Positions 21,406-54,099 of a stretch of DNA of 58,113 nt are shown one piece after another. Location: contig JAFURK010000034.1 in NCBI GenBank assembly GCA_017480975.1, positions 1 through 58,113 of the forward strand, in the 5' to 3' direction. Below the pieces are notes generated by a model, which saw nothing but the letters and a program-made list of their open reading frames with translations, was not told the origin of the DNA and searched no databases. The first letter of the stretch is position 1, and each line of letters starts with the position of its first letter. Made by a program: the position numbers and the translations under genes. Source of the stretch: Bacilli bacterium (lineage in GTDB: Bacteria > Bacillota_I > Bacilli_A > RF39 > UBA660).

Positions 21406-23865
21406 TTACTTATGTATTTTCCTTTTACGAACTTTTTTACTGTCTTCTCCTACTGGTGTTTTAGTTTTTCTTAAATATAAATAACTACCTATTCCTAAAG
21501 CTATAACTAAAACAAATATCCCCCCAACTATATAAGTAGATAATGAACCAGTCGGAATTTCTATAATAGGCATATCATACATAACCAACTTATTATCAGC
21601 TAAAGAATTACCAAATGCATCCACTAATGTACCATCATCTTTTAAAGTAAATAATACTGACTCAGCCGTTGTATAATTTGTAGGAGCAATTTTTTCTACT
21701 AGGTAATAAGTTCCAGCTGGAAGACCAATAATTTTCTTAGGTTCATCAGTTGATACCCAACTAGCAGCAGTTCCACCTTCTAAAACAGCTTCCGCACAAT
21801 CACCTGTATATTGATCAACAACCATTTGTAGTTCATCATTTTCATCGATATACGTTTGACAAATGCTAATAGTAGCACCAGGTAACTCCTTTGCTGTCGT
21901 AATATCCAACTTACTAATGGTAATAAAATTAACATCATTTTCAATAACAATTGCCTTTTCGCCCTTTAAAAATTCTTCATTAGTAATAACTGTATCGCCT
22001 GATTTCACATTCCCTTTTTCATCAATAGAGAAAGATGTAGCAGTAGTAGCTTTAATGTATCCTCTAGGTGGCGTAATTTCAATAATATAATAATCACCTT
22101 TAGGAACTCCCACGAATTCATAAGGCTTATCAATAGAAATCCAACTCATCTCCACTCCATCAATAGTCTTAGCAGGATCACAACTATCTTTTTGGCTTTC
22201 ATAACTAGAAGCTGTACAAATTTTTAAACTAGCACCATTTACTTCCTCATTACCACCAACAGCCTTTTTACTAATTTTAATAGTATTCTTATTATTTACT
22301 TGCGTTACAATTAAATTACCACTAGAAGTAGTGACCTTGGTATAATTACCTTTATTACTACAATACCCATCATCAGCTTTAGTATTTCCAGATATATTAT
22401 AACAAATTTTTTCATAAGTAACTGTTGTACTCGCATCTTCATCCTGATTAGTTGATGAAAACTCACAATTTCCAGAATCATTTAAATCAACAGGATTTCC
22501 CCCCTCTGAACTTTGACATTTATATACATAGTTATCAAAATTACAAAATTCACTATCAACTTTCGTAGGTTCTTCACCATCATTACCAACGTAATAACAA
22601 ACATTACCATTACCATTAGAAATAGAATTCATACGATAAAAGTGATTTACACTCCCACTTAAAACATAACCATCAGGAGCACTTTTTTCAACTAAATAAT
22701 AATCATGTTTAAAGAAATCATCATCATTTTCAGCAACATTAGGACTAGTATAAGTGATACTAGAACTACCACCACTATTATCTGCTAACAACTTTTTGCC
22801 ACTAGCTTCATAATCTTGATATAATTCAAGCGTTGAGCCCTCTAAACTATTACCATATTCATCAACCTTATTAGCAACAATCATATGATTTACAGTATTT
22901 GGTATAAGTAATCTAATAGACTTACCACCAGTACGACTAATAGTTGAAGAATCTACCGTTACTAAATGTTGACTATTAGTACAATCAGTATTATTATATC
23001 TAATAATTGTAGGATATACACTTGTATTTGAAGCGGATACACTAACCGTAACAGTACTACTAGCTTTTAAATCACTACCAGATACCTTTACATAAAAACT
23101 ATACTGTTCACCATCCGTCTTTGGCTCAATCGTAACAGAATCGCTACAATTACTTCCCATTCTAGTACAAATTTGAGCAGTTCCACTTGTCGAAGTAGCT
23201 TTCAAAACATAAGTAACTTGACCATCATACTTAGGTACACCACCATATGTAGCATATAAATTATTCATAACAATCTTATCAGATATATAATAACCATTAG
23301 ATTCATTCAAAGTACCATTTAAAAGACTAAATTGAGGTGCCGGAATACTTGTATTTAATTTTAAATTAGATTCATATTCCACAGCCTGATCATAAACTTG
23401 ACGGACACGATTATTAGTATTATAAAAATTGTATGAAGTACCACCATAAACTCTTTTATTAAAAAATGTATTTAAGACAGCACCAACCTGCTCGTATCTT
23501 TCAGCCCCATCACTTACTAAATCTGACATTTCCTTTGCCATCATTCCAGCCGCAATAGCGCTCTTAGAATCTTTGCTCCAACTACTATCAACCTCATAAT
23601 TTTTAGAACAAATTTCCAATCCCCATTGAACACAATATGCATGCTTATTATTAATTACTTTAACATACTCTATCGCATACCCAGAAGGACAAGTACCTCC
23701 AAATCCAACAAAACCTCCACCATAATTACCATTGGTTAAATTAAAACAAACGTGAGTATCATTTTTATCCCCAGTATAAGTTAATGCTTTAGCCTGCACT
23801 GGGAATAAAAATAATACCAAAACCATTAATAATACCAAACTATATTTCTTAACAAATTGCTTCAT
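21406..23865 (-). CDS. Large cell-surface protein with three SpaA/Cna-B-type (prealbumin-fold) repeats and a C-terminal membrane anchor
   Basis: 819 aa. The signal peptide ends in FPVQAKA. Three repeats carry the signature [12 protein letters not shown] / [12 protein letters not shown] / [12 protein letters not shown]. The C-terminus has IEIPTGS, a hydrophobic helix and a K/R tail. Confidence 0.75.
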
Positions 23866-37606: not shown

Positions 37607-38584
37607 TTAATCAATACTTCTATACAATCCTAATTTATTTAAAATGGGAAATAAAATCTCCAAATTATCTAACCTATCATTCAAAGGAGGTAACACTCCA
37701 AAAAAATTAATCCCTGTTTCAAAACTCAATTGTTTAACATCTTTATTACTCAATAAGGAACGATTTAAAATTACTTTTTGATCAGCAATTTTATTAAAAC
37801 AACGATTGTCTAACATCACCGCCTTATTAATCATTAAAGTTGAGGATTCCATTAAAAAAACAACATCAGAACAAACACTATAAACGGTAGCAAGATCCAA
37901 ATCATTTAAATCAATTAAAAGAACATTAACGCCTTTATATTTTAATAACAAATTATTTAATTCATTAGCTTTACAACTAATCATATCTTTATCATTAAAA
38001 AACATAAAATCTCGTTTATTAATTTCTATTGCTACAGTATAATAATTTTTTGATAACTGTTTCTTTAACATATAAATTAAACTAGTAGCTCCCGCATGAC
38101 TAGTAAAATTTTTTATTCCAATAATTTTAACTCCAGAATCGACTACATCGAAATTTTTATCAACACCGCCAACTTCAGGTGTCATCACCATAGAATACTC
38201 ATCAATTTTTTGTAAATGAGCTACATCCTTGTAACTATTAGGATTATCATATAAATATTTTAATTCATCTTCAGTTCGAGCAAAATTATAAATTCCCATA
38301 CTAATTAATTTAGAAATATAAGAATCAGAATTAACAACATTATTATCATTAGGTAAAAGTAATATTATTTTACTAACATCTAAACCTATAGATAAAGCCT
38401 TTAAATTATTAACATTAGTATAATCTTTAATTGATGTAATATCTAAAAACATTCTATTAAAGAAAAAATTAGAAAAAGACTGCACAATCTCATCAACAGT
38501 AAACTCTCCCGTAATAGACTTAATAACATCAATATCTAAATTAACAAATTTTTTACCATTCAAATTACTAACAATGACATTCAC
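37607..38584 (-). CDS. TadZ/CpaE-like protein: pseudo-receiver N-domain plus MinD/ParA-like domain with a degenerate Walker A
   Basis: 325 aa. The C-terminal half follows the MinD/ParA template: VKIIGIKNFTSHAGATSLIYML ... VLLIDLND ... DVVFLMESS ... VILNRS ... GVLPP. The P-loop reads SHAGATS instead of KGGxGKT. Confidence 0.55.
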   Translation of the reverse strand: MNVIVSNLNGKKFVNLDIDVIKSITGEFTVDEIVQSFSNFFFNRMFLDITSIKDYTNVNNLKALSIGLDVSKIILLLPNDNNVVNSDSYISKLISMGIYNFARTEDELKYLYDNPNSYKDVAHLQKIDEYSMVMTPEVGGVDKNFDVVDSGVKIIGIKNFTSHAGATSLIYMLKKQLSKNYYTVAIEINKRDFMFFNDKDMISCKANELNNLLLKYKGVNVLLIDLNDLDLATVYSVCSDVVFLMESSTLMINKAVMLDNRCFNKIADQKVILNRSLLSNKDVKQLSFETGINFFGVLPPLNDRLDNLEILFPILNKLGLYRSID

Positions 38585-38599
38585 TATTCTGCCTCCACT

Positions 38600-39001
38600 C
38601 TATGCGTTATTTATAATTTTTGTCTCACCACCAATAGGTATCGCAATACCTACATTAAACAAAGGAAAATCCATAACAATATAAGCAAAAACTTTATAAT
38701 AAGAACCACTATTCTTTGAAACTATACAAACACCATGCTCAGTTAAATTACCACCTTGAGAATTGCAATGTTCTAATACTTTAGGATACCTATCCTTCGG
38801 ATAAGAATATGCTACCTCATATAAATAAGCATCAATTTCCTCAACAGTATACCCTTTATTATGCTCTATGTAATTGACAACACCATTCTTCACTCTAAAT
38901 GTTTTTGCAAAACTAATTGAAACAGTCATAAAACAAATAAATATAACAAAAAAAGTCAAAATAATAGTTATAATAAAAGAACCACCAAAAGCATCTTTCA
39001 T
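38600..39001 (-). CDS. TadE-like prepilin / minor pilin candidate (paralog 2)
   Basis: 133 aa. It begins MKDAFG-GSFIITIILTFFVIFICFMTV, a short charged leader ending in Gly followed by a hydrophobic helix. It is a paralog of 39034-39459, with shared blocks FRVKNGV, YYKV..Y.V.DFP.FN and IPI.GET. Confidence 0.55.
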   Translation of the reverse strand: MKDAFGGSFIITIILTFFVIFICFMTVSISFAKTFRVKNGVVNYIEHNKGYTVEEIDAYLYEVAYSYPKDRYPKVLEHCNSQGGNLTEHGVCIVSKNSGSYYKVFAYIVMDFPLFNVGIAIPIGGETKIINNA

Positions 39002-39033: not shown

Positions 39034-39459
39034 TTAATAAGGTAAAACAATAACCTCTGTCTCGCCAGAAATTGGGATAACTGGATTATAATTAAAGAAC
39101 GGAAAATCAATAACTAAATAAAGAATAACTTTATAATATACTTCATTAGAACTAACTTCATTTCTAATAATACAAGCACCATTTTCAGAATAAAATCCAG
39201 ATTTAGAATCGCAATTACTTTTAGCACTAGGATATTGACTAGCCGGATAATTATAAGAAAAATTGCTTAAATAATTGTTAATATCATCCTCACTATCACT
39301 ACTACTATCATACTGCATTTGTTCCAAAATATCAATTACGCCATTCTTTACTCTAAAAACTCTCGCATAACTGGCAGCAATAGTCATGAAAGATACAAAA
39401 GCAACAATAAAAATTATAATAAGTTTAAACATAAAAGTACTTCCAAATGCATCTCTCAT
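39034..39459 (-). CDS. TadE-like prepilin / minor pilin candidate (paralog 1)
   Basis: The start is moved to the ATG at 39459 (GGTGAT SD), giving 141 aa. It begins MRDAFG-STFMFKLIIIFIVAFVSFMTI. Confidence 0.55.
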   Translation of the reverse strand: MRDAFGSTFMFKLIIIFIVAFVSFMTIAASYARVFRVKNGVIDILEQMQYDSSSDSEDDINNYLSNFSYNYPASQYPSAKSNCDSKSGFYSENGACIIRNEVSSNEVYYKVILYLVIDFPFFNYNPVIPISGETEVIVLPY

Positions 39460-39564
39460 CACTATCACCAACCTCAAAAAAAATAATTACAATCCTATTA
39501 ATAGATATTCCTAAATAAGACATACAAAAATAATTCTAACTAACCAATCCTATTATTTGCTTCT

Positions 39565-39741
39565 TTATAAATTTTGATTAGTACCATCAACATATTCAAT
39601 ATTATAACTAGTAAGATTGCTCCATTGATTTTCAACATATTTTTGAGCAAGTGGAACTAAAAATCTTACAACTCCAGCTATCAAAGCAATTGCCAAAATG
39701 GTAACTACTACCATACTTAATTCACCTGTAGATTCTTTCAC
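39565..39741 (-). CDS. Flp-like major pilin candidate (58 aa), not in the ORF track
   Basis: Minus strand reads GGAGG, 8 nt, then a GTG start. It encodes MKESTGELSMVVVTILAIALIAGVVRFLVPLAQKYVENQWSNLTSYNIEYVDGTNQNL, ending in TAA at 39565-39567. The short polar leader ends in Gly and is followed by a hydrophobic helix of about 20 aa. Its position directly after the platform genes is where flp sits in Tad loci. Confidence 0.6.
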   Translation of the reverse strand: MKESTGELSMVVVTILAIALIAGVVRFLVPLAQKYVENQWSNLTSYNIEYVDGTNQNL

Positions 39742-39778
39742 CTAAATCACCTCCTTTAATTGCAAATACTTCTATAAA

Positions 39779-40573
39779 TTAAATACTAGAAAAAGACATT
39801 AACATAGAAACTAAAAGTAATATCATACCCCCGCCACCAGTAACAACTAACATTACCATAGTCATACTTTCCATTTTACTTAACCTATTTTTATATTTTT
39901 GTTCCCTAGATTTTTGTTGTAAACTAGAAACACTTTTAGAAAATGATATTAACTGAGTATGTTTTTTTTCTTGCTCCCCTAAACTTAAACGATAAAGTAA
40001 TCTCATCATCCTAACAGAATCTCTAACCGGATACATAGTTGCAAAATCCATATAAGGTTGAACTGAAGAATCACCAGCTTCAATCTTAGCAACCATAGCT
40101 TTCAATCCAGGCTTAAAAACTTCCGGAGCATCTTCAATACTTCTAGCAAGCGCAACTGGAACAGTATAATGTTGAATCAAAACTTCTAACCCTTTTAAAT
40201 AATAAGGAAGCAAAGAATCAACTTCATTCAAATGATTTTTATAATAAGTTTTCAAATTAAAATATTGTAATTTAAAAACTAAAAAACCAATAAGCAAACT
40301 AATTATTATATTTAAAAATGATAAACTAGAAATAAAGAAAAACATACATAAAATACTAACTAAAAAACCATTACGTACTCTTTTCATAAAAACAGCATCA
40401 ACATCATAAACTGCATCACCGTATTTAGATAAAAGTAAAAATTCATAATCACTTTCCTTTAACAAATTAAATAAGTCTTTATTATCTGCAACAAATTTTC
40501 CTGTACTAATTTTACCGCTGTAAAATAGTACTCCAAAAATAATTACACCTACTAATAATATCTCTATATACAT
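39779..40573 (-). CDS. tadC: Tad pilus platform protein, GspF/T2SSF-like (TadC-like)
   Basis: 264 aa. The topology (N-terminal TM, cytoplasmic helical domain, C-terminal TMs) fits T2SSF. Its ATG shares one base with the stop of the preceding paralogous gene. Confidence 0.65.
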   Translation of the reverse strand: MYIEILLVGVIIFGVLFYSGKISTGKFVADNKDLFNLLKESDYEFLLLSKYGDAVYDVDAVFMKRVRNGFLVSILCMFFFISSLSFLNIIISLLIGFLVFKLQYFNLKTYYKNHLNEVDSLLPYYLKGLEVLIQHYTVPVALARSIEDAPEVFKPGLKAMVAKIEAGDSSVQPYMDFATMYPVRDSVRMMRLLYRLSLGEQEKKHTQLISFSKSVSSLQQKSREQKYKNRLSKMESMTMVMLVVTGGGGMILLLVSMLMSFSSI

Positions 40574-41472
40574 TACTCAGCACCTACATTCTCATTATAA
40601 TATTTTTCCCCTTTAAGAAGAAAAAATGTATTTACAAGCACTAAAATATGTAACAAAACAACAATAATCGGATTATCTAACATAGCAATATAGCTATCAA
40701 CTCCTAGCAATAACTGAATAAGCATAACAATTCCATATAATGCAACACCAAATAAAAGAAATTGTTTGTGAAATTCAGCCCTATCCATTCTATCTCGATA
40801 AACTCCTTCTACTAATACGTCAATATCATTTAACATATTATCAAAAGTTTCCTCTGTATCCTTGGCACCTTCTTTGGTAACTTGTAAAAATAATTGATGC
40901 ATATTCTTTACCATAAAGAAAGGATATTTAGTATTCATATAAACTATCGAATCATTAACCTCCCCCTTCTCATATGATAAAGCTATCATAGTTTTAACAT
41001 CAGTTAAAACAGGATCTTCTAAAACACCAGATTCAACTACGCCTTCTAATGATTTTATAAATGCCTGAGTACTAGCAAATTCCATTATCGTATTTGTAAC
41101 ATAAACTTGAATTTGTTCAAAAATATATTCACTATATTGCCTCTTTGAACGCAAATAAGTAATGTATGGAATAAATGATATAGCAATAATTGCATAAACA
41201 ATTGAAACAAGCAAACTATAGAAATACATATAACCAACAACCCCTGCAATGCCAGCAAACAAAACTAACTGCGTAATATATTGTCTTGGAGTATAATCCA
41301 TTCCTAACTCTTTAATTTTCTTTCGCATTTCTTTATAAGAATAAGGTGCATATTTTCCATAAATATTATTAGCTTGTTCAGTAATAAACTTATAAACACC
41401 ATTTCCAGTACTTGAACGATAAGTAACAATAAATATTAATACAACACCAACTAGTAATACTGCTATTAACAC
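40573..41472 (-). CDS. tadB: Tad pilus platform protein, GspF/T2SSF-like (TadB-like)
   Basis: 299 aa with a GTG start (GAGGTGA SD). The topology matches its downstream partner, and it lies immediately after the secretion ATPase. Confidence 0.65.
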   Translation of the reverse strand: MLIAVLLVGVVLIFIVTYRSSTGNGVYKFITEQANNIYGKYAPYSYKEMRKKIKELGMDYTPRQYITQLVLFAGIAGVVGYMYFYSLLVSIVYAIIAISFIPYITYLRSKRQYSEYIFEQIQVYVTNTIMEFASTQAFIKSLEGVVESGVLEDPVLTDVKTMIALSYEKGEVNDSIVYMNTKYPFFMVKNMHQLFLQVTKEGAKDTEETFDNMLNDIDVLVEGVYRDRMDRAEFHKQFLLFGVALYGIVMLIQLLLGVDSYIAMLDNPIIVVLLHILVLVNTFFLLKGEKYYNENVGAE

Positions 41473-43681: not shown

Positions 43682-44164
43682 TTAATTCCTAAGTTCTAAA
43701 ATTCCGCTAAGATTATTAACTAAATTAAACGAAGATTCATCACCACTAGTCGTCAAAACATAATCTTGAGTCTTACCAGTAATGACTACTGTAGCCTTTG
43801 GTGGCATCTCAATGATGTCATAAAATTGAATATTATATTCACTAACATCTCCCATTACACTAGCAGCAAAACGTCTAGTAAAATTTTCAACAAATTTTTG
43901 TTCAATAATTTTTAAATCATCATCGCCACATGCTTCTACAGTCTCAATAGTACCTTCATTGTTGAAAACCTCAGCTTTACCTTCTGAATCTCCAATTCTA
44001 TAACATACTAAATCAACCGACTCTAACATTGCAGCTTCCATTGCCTCTTTCAATACATAGTACTCAGATTCATTGTTAACTGTAATATCCTGAAACATAA
44101 CAATCAATATAAAACCTAACATCCCAAATAATATAAAACCTAAACTTAAATAAGCATATTTCAT
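43682..44164 (-). CDS. N-terminally anchored protein of unknown family (possible pseudopilin or assembly factor)
   Basis: 160 aa. It begins MKYAYLSLG-FILFGMLGFILIVMF and is followed by a soluble domain. I recognise no motif. Confidence 0.45.
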   Translation of the reverse strand: MKYAYLSLGFILFGMLGFILIVMFQDITVNNESEYYVLKEAMEAAMLESVDLVCYRIGDSEGKAEVFNNEGTIETVEACGDDDLKIIEQKFVENFTRRFAASVMGDVSEYNIQFYDIIEMPPKATVVITGKTQDYVLTTSGDESSFNLVNNLSGILELRN

Positions 44165-44182
44165 TTAAAATCACCACCACCA

Positions 44183-46765
44183 TTATTTAGTTGCATCACA
44201 AGCTGTAGAAAAAGTTCCAACTGGACAATAACTATTATCTATCCCTAATTTAGTCTTAAAATATCCAGAGAACTTACTAGTTATAAATTCATTACTACCT
44301 GTTTTAGTAATTGTTTGCATACTAGCATAACTAGAATCATTTGAATAATCATTCAATTCATTTATTCCTAACTTATCTCCAGAACTACCACCTTTGGCAA
44401 TTGTTACTTCATATAAAGGTTGACCACTATAATAAGCATCATAAGTACTCTTTAATCTAGTTTGATTATTTCCATCCGCCCACCATACTTGCCAATTTAC
44501 AGGAATAGAAGATGTATTTTTAAATGGTTTTTCAACATCAATAGAACGATAATTATAAGTTAATGCAATTTTATCTCCATCTCCATCGCCATCTTCATCT
44601 TTATAATAACTGTCATTAACATTAACATCACATGTTCCATTTAATTTCCAATCAAATTCAGAATACTCAACTAACAAACTAGGATTAATATTTTCAGCCA
44701 AATTAAACGGAAAATCTTCATCATAAACCCATTTAAAATCAACATAAAACCTTTGACCAGTCGCAACAGATTTCTCTTTCAAATCCTGTGTTGCATCCTC
44801 AGCCTTTTTTATATATTCAGCTTTACCAGCTTCATTACCTGTGATATAGATATAAGAATCAGCTAAACTATACGAATACTTATTTGTTGTATATTTACCA
44901 ACATTATTTGAACCATCACGAATAATATCCCTCTCTGGCGAAGTTTCATCCTTTTTCCAACTGCCATCAACCTCATAACCAGGATTATTTACATCACAGC
45001 TAGAAATATCATTACCATTGCAAGATTTATATTTTATATTTGAAATTGGATCACCATCTTCGACACCATCTTTAATCTTTTTCTGAACTTCTAAATCAAT
45101 CACCTCAAAAGCTGCTTCAGATATTCCAATAAATCCAGAACTACTTCCATCACTCTTAGTATATTTTGCTTTCGTATTATCATCTAAATAAACCGTTTGA
45201 GTAGAACACGAACCATTAGAATATACAGTTGTTTCATACTTATAATAAGGTATACCACTTTTAGTTTGTAAAGCATTTACCCAAGTAACCGTATTGTTAT
45301 AAAAAGTACCTTCTAACCCAAAACCTTTTCCAGCATAGATACCAGTACTATTATCAAAACCAGTTAACTCACCAAAATTAAATTCTGCCTCTTGTATCAA
45401 TAATACATTAATAGAAACTTTAATAGTATCAGAACCAGCACAAGTATTAAGTCTATTTTGTAATTTTACTTCACCAGATACATCTATTTTATTGTTTTTT
45501 CCTCCTATACATTGAAAATACTTACCATTAACAGGTGAACCACTACCACTTGATCCAGCATTATTTTCACAAACTACACTATTTTCTTTAACAGTACTTT
45601 TTGTTTCTCCACCAGTAAGTTGATCATAATAATCACATTCTCTTTGAACAATATTTTCTTTTAATTCTATTGTTAAACTTCCCGTAACAGATAACCAACT
45701 ACCAAATGCATAAAAAACACTACTACCATATCTATTAGATTTTACAAAACAATCATCAGTTACTTCACTAGCTTTCAAAGCATAGAGTACATCTTTCCAA
45801 CTTCTTCCAGTATCATAACTGTTTTGATAACTTCCAAGACTTCCTCGACTAGAAACTATGTAAGAGCCACTACTATTAAACACTTTATAAGTTCTACTAT
45901 TACCATCTTTACAAGTACCAGCACTAATTTTTTCACGACTAGTATTCCGGTATGCAATAGTTTCAGGAGCAATAGTAACAGAATCACTCATCCCACCAAT
46001 AGTTAACAAGAAATTTCCAACTTCATTTTCAGTGCCACAGCTTTTTTCATTAACCCAACAATTTTTTGTATATACACCTAATTCAGTCGAAAAATATGTA
46101 CCACCATATTCATCACTATGGCGATCAGAATAAAAACCGGCCTTATCATGCAAAACAATTCTAAAATGAATTTCTTCTTCACTTCCTAATTCATTAATTA
46201 ACTCATCTAAAGTAATACTAGCTCTAAACCCAACATTTTTGTAAGTACACCAAGCACCTGAAGCCCCATTAGTACAAGAATTCTTCCACTCGCTTTCTCT
46301 TACACCATCATAAGCTTTTTTACAATTTTCTTGAGCTTCAGTCGTACCATTACCATCGCTATCAGCTCTAGAACCAAAACAACGAGATTCAGACATATTT
46401 CTATCTGATTGTGTAACTCTCAGACGAACACTTTTACCAGTTACCTCATTTTCTTTGTAAGTTTTATCCCACTTTCCTACATAAGCTACCACATAAGTAT
46501 CAAAATTACCTCTTCCTCCATTAATACTACCAATATTATGTTGATGTTCAATAAAAGCATAACCATCAAAACTCAAGTTATTACCACTAATATTAAAACT
46601 TTCAACAGAATAAATAACTTTATGAGAAACATTATTTCCCCCAACAGACTCAATACACTCATCGTATGACGTACCTTCTCTACAATTATCTTGTCCTAAA
46701 ACAACATTAGGAAAAACAAACATAACCATAAACAAAAAACATATAAATTTTATCTTTTTTCTCAT
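44183..46765 (-). CDS. Large secreted Cys-containing protein of unknown family (candidate pilus-associated adhesin or substrate)
   Basis: 860 aa. The signal peptide is MRKKIKFICFLFMVMFVFPNVVLG-QD. Many Cys residues are spread through the sequence, with an acidic DEDGDGDGD patch and no C-terminal anchor. Its ATG overlaps the upstream stop by 4 nt. Confidence 0.6.
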   Translation of the reverse strand: MRKKIKFICFLFMVMFVFPNVVLGQDNCREGTSYDECIESVGGNNVSHKVIYSVESFNISGNNLSFDGYAFIEHQHNIGSINGGRGNFDTYVVAYVGKWDKTYKENEVTGKSVRLRVTQSDRNMSESRCFGSRADSDGNGTTEAQENCKKAYDGVRESEWKNSCTNGASGAWCTYKNVGFRASITLDELINELGSEEEIHFRIVLHDKAGFYSDRHSDEYGGTYFSTELGVYTKNCWVNEKSCGTENEVGNFLLTIGGMSDSVTIAPETIAYRNTSREKISAGTCKDGNSRTYKVFNSSGSYIVSSRGSLGSYQNSYDTGRSWKDVLYALKASEVTDDCFVKSNRYGSSVFYAFGSWLSVTGSLTIELKENIVQRECDYYDQLTGGETKSTVKENSVVCENNAGSSGSGSPVNGKYFQCIGGKNNKIDVSGEVKLQNRLNTCAGSDTIKVSINVLLIQEAEFNFGELTGFDNSTGIYAGKGFGLEGTFYNNTVTWVNALQTKSGIPYYKYETTVYSNGSCSTQTVYLDDNTKAKYTKSDGSSSGFIGISEAAFEVIDLEVQKKIKDGVEDGDPISNIKYKSCNGNDISSCDVNNPGYEVDGSWKKDETSPERDIIRDGSNNVGKYTTNKYSYSLADSYIYITGNEAGKAEYIKKAEDATQDLKEKSVATGQRFYVDFKWVYDEDFPFNLAENINPSLLVEYSEFDWKLNGTCDVNVNDSYYKDEDGDGDGDKIALTYNYRSIDVEKPFKNTSSIPVNWQVWWADGNNQTRLKSTYDAYYSGQPLYEVTIAKGGSSGDKLGINELNDYSNDSSYASMQTITKTGSNEFITSKFSGYFKTKLGIDNSYCPVGTFSTACDATK

Positions 46766-47406
46766 TCTAACACTCTTCTCTTTCTCATTCTAAGAAAAGC
46801 GACTATAATTACAACTAAAAGAACAACTCCTCCAAGAATAAATAAATAATAATTACTTAAAAAATCAACAACTTTATTAATAAAACTTCCATTATCATCA
46901 TTATCATTATCGTCATTTAAATAAGAATTAACTACTTTATAAAAATACTCATCATTAATTTCTGCTTGATAATTAGAATCACATACATCTAAATTATATT
47001 CTTCCAATTCTTTACATTCTTTTCTTAAAGAATATACATTAAATTTAGGAAGATTAAAAGAAAACTTTTTCAATAAAATATCTCGACACCTAGTAGAATA
47101 AACCTTAAGCACATTGTTTCCCGATGAAAGTATCAGCTCTAATACACCATTTTCAATCTGATTATAATAATATTCATTTCCATCACCATCAACTATATAT
47201 AATTGTTCATTTAACCCCCGCACATAAACATAATACAAATTATATATCCCTTCTTCTCCTACAACTACTTCATAATCATATTCAACATAACTAGCTAATT
47301 CCTTTAAATTATCAATTTCTTCTTTATCACACATAAGCGCATCTACACTTAAATTAAATCCAAATAAAGAAAAGCAAAAAACAAACATCAACTTTAATAT
47401 TTTCAT
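46762..47406 (-). CDS. Secreted, C-terminally membrane-anchored protein of unknown family; first gene of the Tad-like operon
   Basis: 214 aa. It has a signal peptide, an ectodomain of about 150 aa with 5 Cys, and a DDNDNDDN linker. A TM (LFILGGVVLLVVIIVAF) and an RMRKRR tail follow. Confidence 0.55.
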   Translation of the reverse strand: MKILKLMFVFCFSLFGFNLSVDALMCDKEEIDNLKELASYVEYDYEVVVGEEGIYNLYYVYVRGLNEQLYIVDGDGNEYYYNQIENGVLELILSSGNNVLKVYSTRCRDILLKKFSFNLPKFNVYSLRKECKELEEYNLDVCDSNYQAEINDEYFYKVVNSYLNDDNDNDDNGSFINKVVDFLSNYYLFILGGVVLLVVIIVAFLRMRKRRVLE

Positions 47407-48924: not shown

Positions 48925-49872
48925 TCATTCTATAATTTCATCAATAATATATTTAGGCCTACGCTTTGTTTCTAAATAAATTTTTGATATATATTCACCT
49001 ATAACCCCAATACAAAATATTTGAAAACTTCCAAAAAAACATACCAAAGCAATAATCGTAACCCAACCATTCACAACATCTGCTCCCCTAAAATAACTAA
49101 TAATTACATACATCAAATAAATAAAACTTAAAAAAGAAAAAATAATTCCTATTCCAATAATAAATCTAATAGGCTTAATACTAAAAGAAGTAATTCCATC
49201 AATAGCAAGCCCTAACATTTTTCTTAAATTATATTTACTACTTCCTGCTTTCCTATCCAAACGTTTATAATAAACTTTACTAGTTTGAAACCCAAGTTTA
49301 GGTATAATTCCTCGTATAAATAAATTACTCTCCTCATATCTTGATAATTCCTCTAAACTTCTTTTACTCATCAATCTAAAATCTGCATGATTATTAATAA
49401 TTTCCCCGCCTAAAAAAGACATAACTTTATAAAAAACTAAAGCCGAATTCCTTTTAAACCAACTATCATTATCCCTATTATTTCTAACCCCATAAACAAT
49501 TTCATTACCTTTATAATATTCATCTATCATATCATCAATAGCATTTATATCATCTTGTAAATCAGCATCCATCGTAATAATCATATCAACATTCTTTCTA
49601 GTTTCCATAATACCAGCATACATAGCAAATTGATGCCCAAAATTTCTAGATAACTTTATAATCATTAAAAACTTATTTTTTAATTGTAATTTTTTCACAA
49701 TATTAATTGTATTATCCTTACTTCCATCATCAACAATAACTATTTTACTCTTTTTACTTATCTTATTACTGCGAATTAATTGATTTAATTTTTCACTAAT
49801 AACCTTAATACTATTTTCAATTACCTCTTCTTCATTATAACATGGCACTACAATATGCAAAATATCATTCAT
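48925..49872 (-). CDS. GT2 polyprenyl-phosphate glycosyltransferase (GtrB/CsbB-like) with two C-terminal TM helices
   Basis: The start is moved to the ATG at 49872 (GGAGG SD, ATGA overlap with the upstream stop). Motifs: VVPCYNEEE, DDGSKD and DADLQDD. Confidence 0.85.
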   Translation of the reverse strand: MNDILHIVVPCYNEEEVIENSIKVISEKLNQLIRSNKISKKSKIVIVDDGSKDNTINIVKKLQLKNKFLMIIKLSRNFGHQFAMYAGIMETRKNVDMIITMDADLQDDINAIDDMIDEYYKGNEIVYGVRNNRDNDSWFKRNSALVFYKVMSFLGGEIINNHADFRLMSKRSLEELSRYEESNLFIRGIIPKLGFQTSKVYYKRLDRKAGSSKYNLRKMLGLAIDGITSFSIKPIRFIIGIGIIFSFLSFIYLMYVIISYFRGADVVNGWVTIIALVCFFGSFQIFCIGVIGEYISKIYLETKRRPKYIIDEIIE

Positions 49873-51046
49873 TAAAACCTCCATAAGTATCACTAGCTCT
49901 AACATAAAATTTCATAATAAATTTAACAATAAATTTAGGCCAAATTTTTTCAAACATAATAATATCTTCTTTTAAACGTTCTTTACTATTAATAAACTCA
50001 ACCGTAGTCGCTTCATCATGAATTCTATAACAAATTAATTTCTTACTAATATAACCAATTTTTCCTTTACCTTTAGCAAATTTCAAAAAAGTATCCCAAT
50101 CTAAAGAAAATTTAAGTTTTGATGTAAATATATTATTACTTCCTAATAACAATTTATTGTAAGTTACCGAAGGACAATTAATGCTATTCCCAAACGATAA
50201 CGCCCCAACTTTAAACCATTTTAATCCATTAAATAGAGAAAATCTTAATGGAAATTTTAATATTCTTTTTAACTTACTATTTATATCTAATTCTTTTTTA
50301 TTATCTTTTAATACATAATAATCAGTACAAAGAAATAAAACATTATTATTAAATTGATAAAATTTTAAAATTTGTTCTAAATAATTTTTTTCATAAATAT
50401 CATCTTGATGAACAATAGTAACTAAATCACTATTAGCTTTTCTATACCCAAAATTCCAATCCTTTTGAATATCACTTTTTCCTTTTCGAACATATAAATG
50501 AATTTTATATTTTATAGCCATTCTATTAATAAAATCATTATCAGTAGAAGTAACCATAATAATATTAGAAGATACAGTCTGATTAATCAAAGATAAAATA
50601 CACTGTTCCAAATATCTACATTCCTTATAGGCACAAATAACAAAAGTATGAGAATACTTCTTTTTAACTACTCCAAAAGTCCAAAACTTACTTAACAAAT
50701 AATTATAAGGAACAGTTATTATCAAAGTAATAATAGGAGCAATTGTATTCGAAATATTTAAAATGTCAACCCATAAATACATACAGAACATATTAATTAC
50801 AAAAGAAGATAAATAAATTATATAATACTTCTTTATACTACCATTTCTACTTCTAAAAACAAAGTTTTTATTAAAACCATATGATATAAAACATGAACAA
50901 ATATAAGCAATAAAATTAGAAATTAAATAATTAATATTAAAATATAATAGTATATAATAAATAATTAAAGAATTGCATGTATTAAATATACCTACTATTC
51001 CAAACCTAATAATTTGAAAAAAATTACTTTTTATAAACTTAAACAC
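49865..51046 (-). CDS. Fusion of a GtrA-like 4-TM domain with a GT2 glycosyltransferase domain
   Basis: 393 aa. The N-terminal roughly 125 aa fit GtrA (FGIVGIFNTCNSLIIYYIL ... SKFWTFG). The C-terminal part is FVICAYKECRYLEQCILSLINQT ... HQDD, a GT2 fold. Confidence 0.7.
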   Translation of the reverse strand: MFKFIKSNFFQIIRFGIVGIFNTCNSLIIYYILLYFNINYLISNFIAYICSCFISYGFNKNFVFRSRNGSIKKYYIIYLSSFVINMFCMYLWVDILNISNTIAPIITLIITVPYNYLLSKFWTFGVVKKKYSHTFVICAYKECRYLEQCILSLINQTVSSNIIMVTSTDNDFINRMAIKYKIHLYVRKGKSDIQKDWNFGYRKANSDLVTIVHQDDIYEKNYLEQILKFYQFNNNVLFLCTDYYVLKDNKKELDINSKLKRILKFPLRFSLFNGLKWFKVGALSFGNSINCPSVTYNKLLLGSNNIFTSKLKFSLDWDTFLKFAKGKGKIGYISKKLICYRIHDEATTVEFINSKERLKEDIIMFEKIWPKFIVKFIMKFYVRASDTYGGFNE

Positions 51047-51417
51047 TTCTAAAACACCTCTAAATCCATTTTAATACAATCAATTAGTACAAACATAAAA
51101 ATACTTATATTCCTCAATTAATTTATAATTATCAATCATATAATCTAAAATTTGTTCATTCAATTGACATCCTCCATCATCATAATGTCAATTAGAAACA
51201 AAAAATACACAACTATATATTATCAATTTCAATAATATATCTATTTGCTCCATCATATCCAAAATTATCATTATTTAAAAGATCAAACTTATTAATTGAC
51301 ATATTTCAATATAAATTAAAAAATAACAAATGACAAATGATAATAATAAAAATTAAACAAAATAATAAAATATATCTTAACCATTTTCTTTAATAAAATT
51401 CATAAAAAGCACTCCCA

Positions 51418-54099
51418 TCAATTAATAAAACCATATACATAAATGTAAAAAAATACACCTAAAAATACTAAATAATAACAACAATTAAAAATTTTAAGAA
51501 TAATGCTATTTGGAACAAACTTAAACTTTACAAAAATTAATAATAGCAATAACGATATAATTGAAATAATACCACTTTCTTTCAAATAAGAAGGATAATA
51601 TGTTAATACTACTTTATTAGCTCCATCACTAAGAGGAATAGAAACAAAATTATCTAAAATTTTTTCAATTTTAACTTTCTTACCATTCACTTCACAATTA
51701 TAATTACTAGAATAATTAATTGGTAAAAATAAATTTTTATTGTTTCCTTCAGCATTAACTTCTGCAAACAATTTATTTTTATCAAAATTTACTTCAACAT
51801 TACTTTTATACTCAATAATTAAATCATTCATTTTTTTTATATTTATTTTTGAAAATTCAAAATCTTTTATACAAAAATCTTTATATAAAGACATAGTAAC
51901 TTTTATTTTTTTATCTTCATATGCACCTAAATCAACAATTCCAGAACTAGAAATAAATTTCTTATTAAAACTATCATTAACATTAGAATTATATATGAAA
52001 CCATCATTAACCTTTATATAATTAATTTGAAAAAGTTTATCCATTCCCTTATATTTTTTCTTATCTTTTCCAACATAAATTATAGAATCATAATCAAAAT
52101 ATAATTCACTAAGTTCAGAAACTGTTAAATAAAAACTAAATTCAGTATCTTCCTTAGCGCAAATATCATTTTCATCTAAATATGCACTATTTGAATCCAC
52201 TAAAAATTCAAAATCAATATCTTCTAAAATACTATCTTCCTTATTAAATAACTTTTGATAAATTTCATTTTGATAATTCAATAAATTATCTTCACCCTCA
52301 TAATAATTAAAAGAATCAAAAACTAAACCATAACCTAAAAAGGAATTTAATTCATACAAATTAACATTATTATCATTATCAATCAAATTATAAACTCTAC
52401 TATCCAATTCCTCATTTGAAATATAACGATTAATTCCTAATAAATTATCCGTAAATAAAGTACCGTCGCGATCAGTAGTAGAAGTAAATGGCGTAGCATA
52501 CCCTAAATTATCCAAAGAATCACTACTATTGGAATCATTCATATGCCAATTACTAATAGTTGATTTACTTAAAATAAAACCATAATTTTCAATCATATCA
52601 ACATTTAAATTTTTATATCTAATTTCTTCATTTATATCATCTTTTAAAAAATTATATAAATTATTACCAATATTAAAAGAATAATTGGTTGATTCTTTCG
52701 ACAATTCGGGCGAACTTATTCCAATATAACTAAGAGACCACCCAATACAACAAACACCTAAAAATAAAACTAATAAAGAATACTTTAAATATACATTTCT
52801 CAATAATAAAATTGAATAAACTAAAAATAAACCTAAAATAGAAATTAATAAAGCATTAAACATTACTTCATAAGAACCTAATCTTAATGATGGATCACTA
52901 GCAGCACTAACTGGAATATGCTTAGTAAACAAATATATCAAAAATATAAAAATCAAAAATATGTATATATAATAATTTTTACTTTTTTTAAATTGCAAAC
53001 TTTCATTAAATTGCAAATAATACAAAGCCCCTAAATATAAAACCATTACAACTATAAAACTATATCTATAAGGAAATTCTGCATAACTACCGGTATGCCA
53101 CATTAAATTGATTGGATTAAAAATTACTCCAACTAAAAATATTATAAATAAATACAAATAAAATCTTCTAATTTTTTTATTTCCCCTTTTCGATTTTAAC
53201 ATAATCATAAAAAGAATAATTGGTAATCCATAAAACAATACAATCATTAATTTATCTGCCATATCTCCAAAAAGATATTTTCCAAAATCTATTGAAGCTC
53301 TTACAGAATTAAATACCCGAACTATTGTAGGTAAAACAAAAACCAGTGCTAATCCTAAAGTCAAAATAGTACCTATCCCCAATTTATAAATAAACATCTT
53401 TTTATCTTCTTCTTTACATAAAAACACCAAATAACCAAATGATAAGAATAATATAAATAATAATTCCATATAAGCAATATAAAAAGAATAAATAATAGAT
53501 AAAAATAATATAATCGTATATAATCTATAATCACCATTATCAATAATTTTCTTAAATCCTAATAACAAAATGGGAAATAAAATTACATTATCTAACCAAA
53601 CAAAATTTGTATGATAAACAATAACCCACCCACTAAATGCATATAAAACACTAAATAAAATTTTCCAATAAATATTAAGCTTTTTATATACTTTATCAAA
53701 CATAAAAAAAGAAGTAACCGAAAGCAAACATAATCTTATTACAAATAAATATGACATAAAATTAGGAATATTGCTTCTAGAAGTTAAAGTTAAAAGCCAA
53801 TTTACCGGTGACAATATTCCATAAATAGAAATTAAATCATACATATCAGTACCTAAACCCACCTTAAAATTTATAAAAATACTTTCATTTCCATTAAACA
53901 AATCATACATATAATAATAAATTGGTAAATATGCCTTTCCAAAATCTCCATTAACCAAAGTATTTTTTCCAAACGGATAAACATCATTTATAAAATATAC
54001 AATTGTTATCAAGAATAATACAATAATAGGAGATATCAGAAATTTAATTCTACTTTTATCAAGATTTTTAAACTTATTATACACATTTATTTTTCTCAT
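51418..54099 (-). CDS. YfhO-family polytopic membrane glycosyltransferase (GT-C-like)
   Basis: 893 aa with more than 12 N-terminal TM helices, a large extracytoplasmic domain and a terminal TM. Size, topology and the neighbouring CsbB-like GT2 match the CsbB/YfhO pairing. Confidence 0.7.
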   Translation of the reverse strand: MRKINVYNKFKNLDKSRIKFLISPIIVLFLITIVYFINDVYPFGKNTLVNGDFGKAYLPIYYYMYDLFNGNESIFINFKVGLGTDMYDLISIYGILSPVNWLLTLTSRSNIPNFMSYLFVIRLCLLSVTSFFMFDKVYKKLNIYWKILFSVLYAFSGWVIVYHTNFVWLDNVILFPILLLGFKKIIDNGDYRLYTIILFLSIIYSFYIAYMELLFILFLSFGYLVFLCKEEDKKMFIYKLGIGTILTLGLALVFVLPTIVRVFNSVRASIDFGKYLFGDMADKLMIVLFYGLPIILFMIMLKSKRGNKKIRRFYLYLFIIFLVGVIFNPINLMWHTGSYAEFPYRYSFIVVMVLYLGALYYLQFNESLQFKKSKNYYIYIFLIFIFLIYLFTKHIPVSAASDPSLRLGSYEVMFNALLISILGLFLVYSILLLRNVYLKYSLLVLFLGVCCIGWSLSYIGISSPELSKESTNYSFNIGNNLYNFLKDDINEEIRYKNLNVDMIENYGFILSKSTISNWHMNDSNSSDSLDNLGYATPFTSTTDRDGTLFTDNLLGINRYISNEELDSRVYNLIDNDNNVNLYELNSFLGYGLVFDSFNYYEGEDNLLNYQNEIYQKLFNKEDSILEDIDFEFLVDSNSAYLDENDICAKEDTEFSFYLTVSELSELYFDYDSIIYVGKDKKKYKGMDKLFQINYIKVNDGFIYNSNVNDSFNKKFISSSGIVDLGAYEDKKIKVTMSLYKDFCIKDFEFSKINIKKMNDLIIEYKSNVEVNFDKNKLFAEVNAEGNNKNLFLPINYSSNYNCEVNGKKVKIEKILDNFVSIPLSDGANKVVLTYYPSYLKESGIISIISLLLLLIFVKFKFVPNSIILKIFNCCYYLVFLGVFFYIYVYGFIN

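Follow-up and report, generated by a model that had tools for sequence, protein, structure and literature searches.

Introduction

The closest described systems to the locus reported here are the Tad (type IVc) pili with their Flp/Fap pilins, the archaeal type IV pili, divergent Tad-like clusters of gut Firmicutes, and a gene module around the VirB11-like ATPase of certain Gram-positive conjugative plasmids. The present work concerns contig JAFURK010000034.1 of a Bacilli bacterium, which was analysed over its full 58,113 nucleotides (nt) and is called the window below, and in it a 58-codon open reading frame (ORF) on the minus strand (39565-39741). An initial annotation, made from the sequence letters alone, had taken this ORF for an unlisted pilin gene lying exactly where flp is expected in a Tad locus. 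We found it to be a real gene of a widespread pilin-like family that is distinct from Flp, and its product is probably the major subunit of a Tad-like surface fibre.

Class III signal peptides combine a hydrophilic leader ending in Gly or Ala with 20-25 mainly hydrophobic residues behind it, and Glu at mature position +5 (Glu5) is frequent, not obligatory, in type IV pilins (PMC10191384). The Tad system is thought to derive from archaeal Epd-like pili, and unlinked or shared prepilin peptidases are known in other type IV filament systems (PMC6668835). As far as the published operon descriptions go, DUF5411, CpaF and PilC stand together in an operon of Roseburia, Ruminococcus and Eubacterium (PMC9523054), and TANB77 has a Tad-like pilus cluster (PMC11680825); divergent Tad-like clusters of uncultured gut Firmicutes have thus been reported, so this kind of system is known. 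Plasmids of the pLS20 type are described as having no pilus components, and pLS20 genes 36-41 are annotated as unknown except gene 37, a 'putative VirB11' (PMC8557374). The mechanism of mating-pair formation in pLS20/pXO2/pZB18-type plasmids is an open question (PMC11730352).

Results

The 58-codon ORF is a conserved protein-coding gene

The ORF begins with GTG (39741-39739), ends at TAA, and is preceded by the Shine-Dalgarno sequence GGAGG (39754-39750), from which the start codon is separated by the 8-nt spacer TGATTTAG; start signal and translation are identical to those given by the initial annotation. That annotation had called the ORF unlisted, which is true of the six-frame track it had at hand and not of the public record, where the gene is already entered as hypothetical protein IJ509_03015 of a Bacilli bacterium metagenome-assembled genome (MAG). 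Genes of this minus-strand operon are tightly packed, and the ORF takes up a 301-nt gap between two of them; the G+C content of the window is 27.8%. When the gap was shuffled 5000 times, an ORF of at least 58 codons arose in 148 shuffles (3%). Its length alone is therefore only mildly unlikely by chance, and it is conservation that decides whether the gene is real.

Among 5.8 billion proteins searched with a word index, 127 homologs of 45-65 amino acids (aa) were found, and an exhaustive phmmer search of 1.84 billion cluster representatives gave 97 clusters at 50% identity (E ≤0.001), nearly all of 45-76 aa and with alignments that start at residue 1 in both proteins. At least 170 relatives of the small protein were found in a scan of one genome per species; 80 of these loci were kept for the locus comparisons, and 85 loci in all entered the gene-order clustering. 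Almost all of the 80 loci belong to uncultured gut or rumen MAGs named Bacilli, Tenericutes or Mollicutes bacterium, Ca. Onthousia, Ca. Scybalousia, Clostridium sp. CAG:628 or CAG:1000, and the named genera are listed as 'Bacilli incertae sedis' in the NCBI taxonomy.

In these homologs the small gene always occupies the same place in a conserved gene order. All 84 related loci had GGAGG or GGAG 6-10 nt ahead of the start codon, and this codon was ATG in 80 of 82 sequences, GTG being found in the window and one relative. Invariant residues were encoded by mixed synonymous codons, A4 by GCT (28), GCA (27) and GCG (23), and G6 by GGA (48), GGT (32) and GGG (2). The ratio of nonsynonymous to synonymous substitution rates (dN/dS) was 0.018 for codons 2-10 and 0.20 for codons 2-29, and ranged from 0.06 to 0.54 when the window was compared with the nine relatives closest to it. 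The 58-codon ORF is real, codes for protein, is strongly conserved and stands under purifying selection; a failure of conservation in related genomes, which the initial annotation had named as grounds for giving the gene up, was looked for and the opposite was found. That the ORF arose by chance in an intergenic gap, as ORFs of such length do in 3% of gap shuffles, is refuted by its conservation across more than 100 genomes, by the dN/dS of 0.02-0.2 with synonymous codon variation at invariant residues, and by the conservation of both Shine-Dalgarno sequence and gene position, and we give this explanation next to no probability. No terminator and no stable RNA structure were found after the gene.

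The small protein has the conservation pattern of a type IV pilin

Members of the family range from 45 to 104 aa. Their N-terminal decapeptide, M-K-E-[AS]-T-G-E-L-[NS]-M, is essentially invariant; G6 was present in all 82 locus sequences and in every database member inspected, and E7 likewise never varies. Mean pairwise identity fell from 97% in residues 1-10 to 53% in residues 11-32 and 21% from residue 33 to the end; in the same genome pairs the machinery proteins had 45-64%, and no other part of the locus is as well conserved as the decapeptide. The mean Kyte-Doolittle hydropathy of residues 8-32 is 2.46; they would form a helix of about 25 residues, and the tail that follows varies across the family from about 10 to about 70 residues.

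As in a class III signal peptide, the leader MKESTG is hydrophilic and ends in Gly, and mainly hydrophobic residues (8-32) come after the putative site; as in type IV pilins, a conserved N-terminus is joined to a variable, exposed C-terminal part. Judged from the sequences, this conservation mosaic is the signature of type IV pilins, and the prepilin layout proposed in the initial annotation stands in the form of a polar leader, an invariant Gly, a hydrophobic helix and a variable tail. The family consensus at the site is MKEATG/ELNMTVVT, with E at +1, V or T at +5 and V or I at +6; the initial annotation had correctly pointed out that the acidic residue lies at +1 and that Glu at +5 and Tyr at +6 are lacking.

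Cysteines were found in 36 of 81 distinct members, always in even number (2, 4 or 6), never in the first 32 residues and always in the tail. Even-numbered cysteines confined to the tail speak for disulfides, and these in turn for an N-in, C-out topology with an exposed tail; the tail of the small protein is extracytoplasmic.

Among Pfam models only PF07790 (archaeal pilin N-terminus) matched recurrently, in 10 of 46 members with a best E of 0.0024, all of them below threshold. A profile search of the PDB with the small protein gave nothing significant; the helices of type IVa pilins aligned to it non-significantly, P30 falling opposite pilin P22. A holin reading, raised by a weak PF16083 match, was ruled out by the absence of phage context and by the synteny with the ATPase module.

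The small gene belongs to an eight-gene module

Clustering of the ORFs revealed a core of eight genes that was present in at least 71 of the 85 loci, in the order DUF5411 protein, CpaB-like protein, T2SSE ATPase, membrane proteins of ~298 and ~262 aa, the small protein, one or two ~150-aa proteins and a ~325-aa protein. The genes of the window are collected in Table 1. For the ~141-aa gene a TTG at 39477 is listed as the start, probably in error; every relative uses the ATG that corresponds to 39459. A leader of the form M-[RK]-[DE]-[AS]-x-G was found in the ~150-aa downstream family in 84 of 85 loci, and the window has two copies of this family. A leader shape common to the small protein and the ~150-aa proteins suggests that they are substrates of one peptidase.

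Table 1. Positions of the small gene and of the module genes around it in the window
Feature	Position	Strand	Remarks
Shine-Dalgarno sequence GGAGG	39750..39754	-	8 nt 5' of GTG
Pilin-like putative prepilin gene, 58 aa	39565..39741	-	leader MKESTG; invariant G6-E7; hydrophobic helix 8-32; variable tail 33-58
DUF5411 protein, 160 aa, N-terminally anchored	43682..44164	-	PF17424, E 6.5e-35
CpaB/RcpC-like protein, 277 aa	42818..43651	-	TIGR03177 E 4e-5, below cut-off; hhalign against canonical CpaB 95.6%, E 1e-8
T2SSE/CpaF/VirB11-family ATPase, 443 aa	41477..42808	-	PF00437, E 7e-26
Polytopic membrane protein, 299 aa, 5 predicted transmembrane segments	40573..41472	-	candidate second platform subunit
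Polytopic membrane protein, 264 aa, 4 predicted transmembrane segments	39779..40573	-	candidate TadC-like platform subunit
Candidate minor subunit, ~141 aa (MRDAFGSTF...)	39034..39459	-	conserved ATG start 39459
Candidate minor subunit, 133 aa (MKDAFGGSF...)	38600..39001	-	paralog of ~141-aa gene
Soluble protein, 325 aa, last gene of the module	37607..38584	-	present in 83 of 85 loci
Clade-specific upstream partners: 860-aa Cys-rich secreted protein and 214-aa C-terminally membrane-anchored protein	44183..47406	-	no family match

The 860-aa and 214-aa genes precede the module only in the clade of the window, and a large adhesin holds their position in other clades and in plasmids, the plasmid adhesins being of the thioester or isopeptide type. 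Upstream of the module, other clades often have a gene resembling class B sortases and a surface protein of ~950 aa. At its C-terminus the ATPase is extended by a low-complexity stretch (residues ~370-443) with much Asn, Gln and Ser, to which the plasmid VirB11-like ATPases and CpaF do not align; in relatives the length of the ATPase runs from about 394 to 536 aa. In one related locus, L025 (CP091739.1), on a closed MAG chromosome of 'Clostridium sp.', nearly every module gene is fragmented and the small pilin gene is intact (96 aa); the fragments look like frameshift errors of long-read assembly rather than decay.

An N-x-S/T sequon is found in the tail of 47 of 81 family members, as NLT in the window protein. 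Two GT2 glycosyltransferases, one of them fused to GtrA, and a YfhO-family protein adjoin the locus in the window (48925-54099, minus strand), and GT2/YfhO equivalents lie just downstream of the locus in the related loci L003 and L004. Glycosylation of the small subunit is conceivable. Elsewhere in the window, an 819-aa protein (21406-23865, minus strand) has SpaA prealbumin-like fold domains (PF17802, E 8e-25) and is a pilin or adhesin of the sortase type; a second surface fibre, unrelated to the first, may therefore exist in this organism.

The protein is not Flp and the machinery is only partly Tad-like

The initial annotation had placed the small protein in the Flp/prepilin class and its gene at the position of flp. 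To compare, the window protein was searched against PF04964 and gave no match (E ≤0.1), nor did any of 46 diverse family members, even at E ≤10. An hhalign comparison of 70 family members with four annotated Flp pilins returned a probability of 0.4%. Real Flp sequences read G/VTAIEYGLIA at the site where the family has G/EL[NS]M[TV]V, and the motif G/xxxxEY is absent from the family. By model, profile and motif alike, the small protein is not a member of the Flp family. Nor did the position argument hold, since flp comes first in the canonical Tad loci compared, followed by tadV, cpaB ... tadZ-cpaF-tadB-tadC, and not after tadC, whereas the window gene follows the genes for the membrane proteins. 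The likeness to Flp/Fap pilins lies elsewhere: both are very short prepilins with a mature part of ~45-55 aa, both have a polar leader that ends in Gly and directly behind it a hydrophobic helix near whose start an acidic residue stands (Glu at +1 here, E5-Y6 in Flp), and both are encoded together with an ATPase of the CpaF superfamily, two adjoining polytopic membrane proteins and CpaB. No similarity was detected by HMM or profile, and homologs of the canonical tadV, TadE, TadF and TadZ were not detectable around the window gene.

The ATPase scored below the cut-offs of the NCBIfam models for VirB11, TadA, TrbB and FlaI, the VirB11 model giving the best score, and hhalign matched it to CpaF at 99.4%. 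When the membrane proteins were aligned with 16 TadB/TadC sequences, the 264-aa family (with its plasmid homologs) reached 69% (E 4e-5, 131 columns spanning the T2SSF domain) and the 299-aa family 22-27%, five unrelated families used as negative controls giving at most 1.5%. A platform identity of the 264-aa protein is thus borderline, being suggestive and not proven; the initial annotation's statement that both are platform genes meets with these borderline alignments (69% and 27%) on the one hand and with no Pfam T2SSF match on the other. TadB/TadC HMM scores on the two membrane-protein profiles were indistinguishable from those of shuffled sequences, and no paralogy was detectable between the 299-aa and 264-aa proteins, although they are similar in topology. 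AlphaFold2 models of the two proteins, built from shallow alignments with only homologs of at least 73% identity, had a predicted local distance difference test (pLDDT) score of 64 and 62 and a predicted template modelling (pTM) score of 0.47 and 0.38. Foldseek found nothing in the PDB at E ≤0.001 with these models, PilC-N (2whn) and EpsF (2vmb) appearing only at E about 5, too weak to count as evidence.

For the 325-aa family, searches of Pfam, NCBIfam and the PDB gave no match, and the 299-aa and 264-aa families were likewise without a Pfam match and without a significant one in the PDB. The labels 'TadE-like' for the ~150-aa proteins and 'TadZ-like' for the 325-aa protein were considered and dropped, hhalign giving 0.1-0.3%, with 0.1% for the 325-aa protein against TadZ. 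By these comparisons the likeness of the machinery to Tad is only partial, with the ATPase and CpaB as the recognisable parts.

Parts of the module are closest to a plasmid 'VirB11 module'

The best plasmid matches of the ATPase were 'CpaF/VirB11 family' ATPases of Gram-positive conjugative plasmids, namely pLS20-like Bacillus plasmids, pXO2/pAW63-like plasmids of the B. cereus group, E. faecium pZB18 and a Paraclostridium plasmid; scores were 147-174 bits against the plasmid VirB11-like ATPases and 83-98 bits against canonical CpaF. The plasmid genes follow the order adhesin, ~125-aa protein, ATPase, membrane proteins of ~270 and ~245 aa, an N-terminally anchored protein of ~120 aa and single-helix proteins of 47-66 aa, after which come TrbC/VirB2, VirD4 and VirB6-like genes. 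The DUF5411 protein is homologous to the ~125-aa plasmid protein 5' of the ATPase (hhalign 94.6%), and the match of the 264-aa protein to the ~245-aa protein is supported (81%); the ~150-aa protein (27%) and the 299-aa protein (7%) matched their plasmid counterparts weakly. For the small protein the match to the plasmid small proteins was weak and not significant (8%), but colinear. Non-cognate pairs of window-family and plasmid proteins gave at most 2.4%. Three proteins of the window, the ATPase, the DUF5411 protein and the 264-aa protein, have their nearest relatives in the plasmid 'VirB11 module', which in pLS20 corresponds to genes 36-41.

Homologous modules are carried by a pLS20-like plasmid, E. 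faecium pZB18, a Paraclostridium plasmid and B. mycoides p97, and the module coordinates in the plasmid loci are L085:8347-12346, L086:9011-13438, L087:9395-13644 and L088:9094-13265. The plasmid modules share with the window the gene order and a homologous ATPase, DUF5411-like protein and ~245-aa membrane protein, but are without the CpaB-like and 325-aa genes of the window module. Their small proteins have a conserved N-terminus of their own, MLDQNTDR.. or MEENSGRL.., and are all annotated as hypothetical.

The pLS20-type systems have VirB4, VirB6, VirD4 and a relaxase, none of which is found in the 58-kb window. In relatives of other clades, VirB6-like, PrgI-like and split VirB4 genes follow directly after the module in 32-36 of the 58 loci with enough downstream sequence, whereas no such genes for a type IV secretion system (T4SS) were found in the clade of the window (L001-L011). 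The T4SS genes after the module (L012:11839-19909 and 35 other loci) comprise a PF18895 T4SS_pilin-like gene, a TrbL/VirB6-like gene of the pLS20_p028 family and a gene for a 106-aa PrgI-like protein, and VirB4 is split into two ORFs in loci of this type (Mbov_0397 family, 359 bits).

Discussion

We propose, with moderate confidence, that the product of the 58-codon ORF is the major subunit of a surface fibre, type IV filament-like (Tad-like), in an uncultured gut Bacillus. The 58-aa precursor would be inserted in the membrane N-in, C-out, and a prepilin-type peptidase encoded elsewhere would cut between G6 and E7 and remove MKESTG. The 52-aa mature protein would then be extracted from the membrane and polymerised via its hydrophobic N-terminal helix by the adjacent ATPase, the two polytopic membrane proteins (remotely TadB/TadC-like) and the CpaB-like protein. 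The two downstream ~140-aa proteins with the same leader shape may be minor or priming subunits, and the variable tail, predicted to be disulfide-bonded in many relatives, would be the exposed surface. The acidic residue that is usual at +5 in type IV pilins would sit at +1 here. Cleavage, its site, filament formation and the role of major subunit are all inferred.

Several observations weigh against this fibre. Glu is not present at mature position +5, where the family has V or T, the invariant Glu being at +1, and we know of no characterised pilin with a G/E site. No pilin HMM matched the family above threshold: the PF07790 score was 15.8 bits against a gathering cut-off of 25.2, and no N_methyl match was returned. 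A T2SSF domain was not found in the 299-aa or 264-aa protein by Pfam, by PDB profile search or by Foldseek on the low-confidence models, and hhalign revealed no likeness of the ~150-aa and 325-aa families to TadE or TadZ. Searches for a prepilin peptidase (A24) were negative both in the window (Pfam on 40 ORFs, all those with multiple transmembrane segments included) and within 10 kb on either side in the 84 related loci, which were searched by phmmer with a TadV sequence over ~2300 ORFs, by a G.[GHA]D motif scan and through precomputed Pfam marks. The plasmid small proteins of the MLDQNTDR.. type, finally, have no Gly at the equivalent position, so Gly-dependent cleavage is not conserved across the wider module.

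The main rival makes the small protein an uncleaved single-pass membrane subunit of the ATPase/membrane-protein complex, a structural or regulatory partner that forms no filament. The missing peptidase gene and the borderline homology of the platform proteins fit this, as does the fact that the ATPase, DUF5411 and 264-aa proteins have their closest relatives in plasmid conjugation operons, where small 'unknown' proteins beside the VirB11-like ATPase of pLS20-type operons are implicitly treated in this way and 47-66-aa proteins without the Gly site are listed as of unknown function (PMC8557374). A buried partner, however, would not be expected to have a hypervariable tail of changing length (21% identity as against 45-64% for the machinery) or paired cysteines in it, nor an N-terminal decapeptide that is the most conserved part of the locus; and a leader shape common to two more N-terminally anchored proteins is typical of the substrates of one peptidase. 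We regard the uncleaved subunit as unlikely, though deserving real weight. Far less can be said for a bona fide Flp-family (PF04964) pilin of a canonical Tad pilus. The small size, the hydrophobic helix after Gly and the CpaB homolog and CpaF/VirB11-family ATPase in the operon would suit it, but it is already contradicted by the model and motif tests, by the lack of any tadV gene found and of TadE or TadZ homology, by a gene order unlike that of canonical loci, and by an ATPase nearer to the plasmid VirB11-like enzymes than to CpaF; it is very improbable. Hardly any room is left for a VirB2/TrbC-type pilin of type IV (conjugative) secretion. VirB4, VirB6-like and PrgI-like genes do follow the module directly in most relatives and the ATPase scores highest on the VirB11 model, but VirB2-type pilins have two hydrophobic helices against one in the small protein, the role belongs in relatives and plasmids to a separate PF18895 T4SS_pilin-like gene, and the small protein does not match PF18895 and has no T4SS genes around it in the window.

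The surface-fibre reading can be extended to the T4SS-associated loci. The module may be an unrecognised type IV filament (Tad-like) pilus built into one family of Gram-positive T4SS/conjugation systems, comprising the pLS20, pXO2/pAW63 and pZB18-type plasmids together with the chromosomal VirB4/VirB6 loci of uncultured gut Bacilli, and the 45-100-aa single-helix proteins, represented in the window by the MKEATG/EL family, may be its pilins. We put this forward tentatively and think it somewhat improbable. If it were true, Gram-positive conjugation systems would have a type IV filament pilus that is not of VirB2 origin, and the clade of the window would have kept the pilus alone, for instance for adhesion. 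To our knowledge, Gram-positive conjugation systems are widely stated to lack pili.

Among archaeal type IV pilins, from which comes the only pilin model with recurrent (sub-threshold) matches to the family, the short Epd-like pilins are alike in their length, in the frequent lack of Glu5 and in having two single-domain platform genes, for which the window has candidates. The family differs from them in being bacterial (Bacilli) and in scoring below the gathering threshold. A basic residue at -2 and Q at +1 are typical of EppA and PibD substrates, and neither is found in the window family.

The operons of gut Firmicutes, compared here by their descriptions only (PMC9523054; PMC11680825), are alike in host, in the combination of a DUF5411 protein with a CpaF-type ATPase, and in several small N-terminally anchored 'pilin-like' proteins without family assignment. 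They differ in belonging to Clostridia and in having platform proteins recognisable as PilC/TadB-C, and a 45-100-aa pilin of the MKEATGEL type does not figure in those descriptions. In the literature searched, we found no description of the pilin family, of the G/E site or of a link to the plasmid 'VirB11 module', and none of a type IV pilus-like pilus in Gram-positive conjugation.

Uncultured gut and rumen Bacilli with reduced genomes carry the family widely: it occurs in at least 170 genomes at species level and comprises 97 clusters at 50% identity, yet it has so far been without a family assignment. As a pilin it would extend the range of type IV pilin-like subunits to a G/E site, an acidic residue at +1 and a mature protein of only 40-100 aa. 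It would also provide a candidate function for the 'unknown' genes beside the VirB11-like ATPase in pLS20, pXO2 and pZB18-type conjugative plasmids, of which the pLS20/B. subtilis system is genetically tractable. In abundant gut bacteria, the exposed and hypervariable tail would probably serve as a surface antigen or adhesin.

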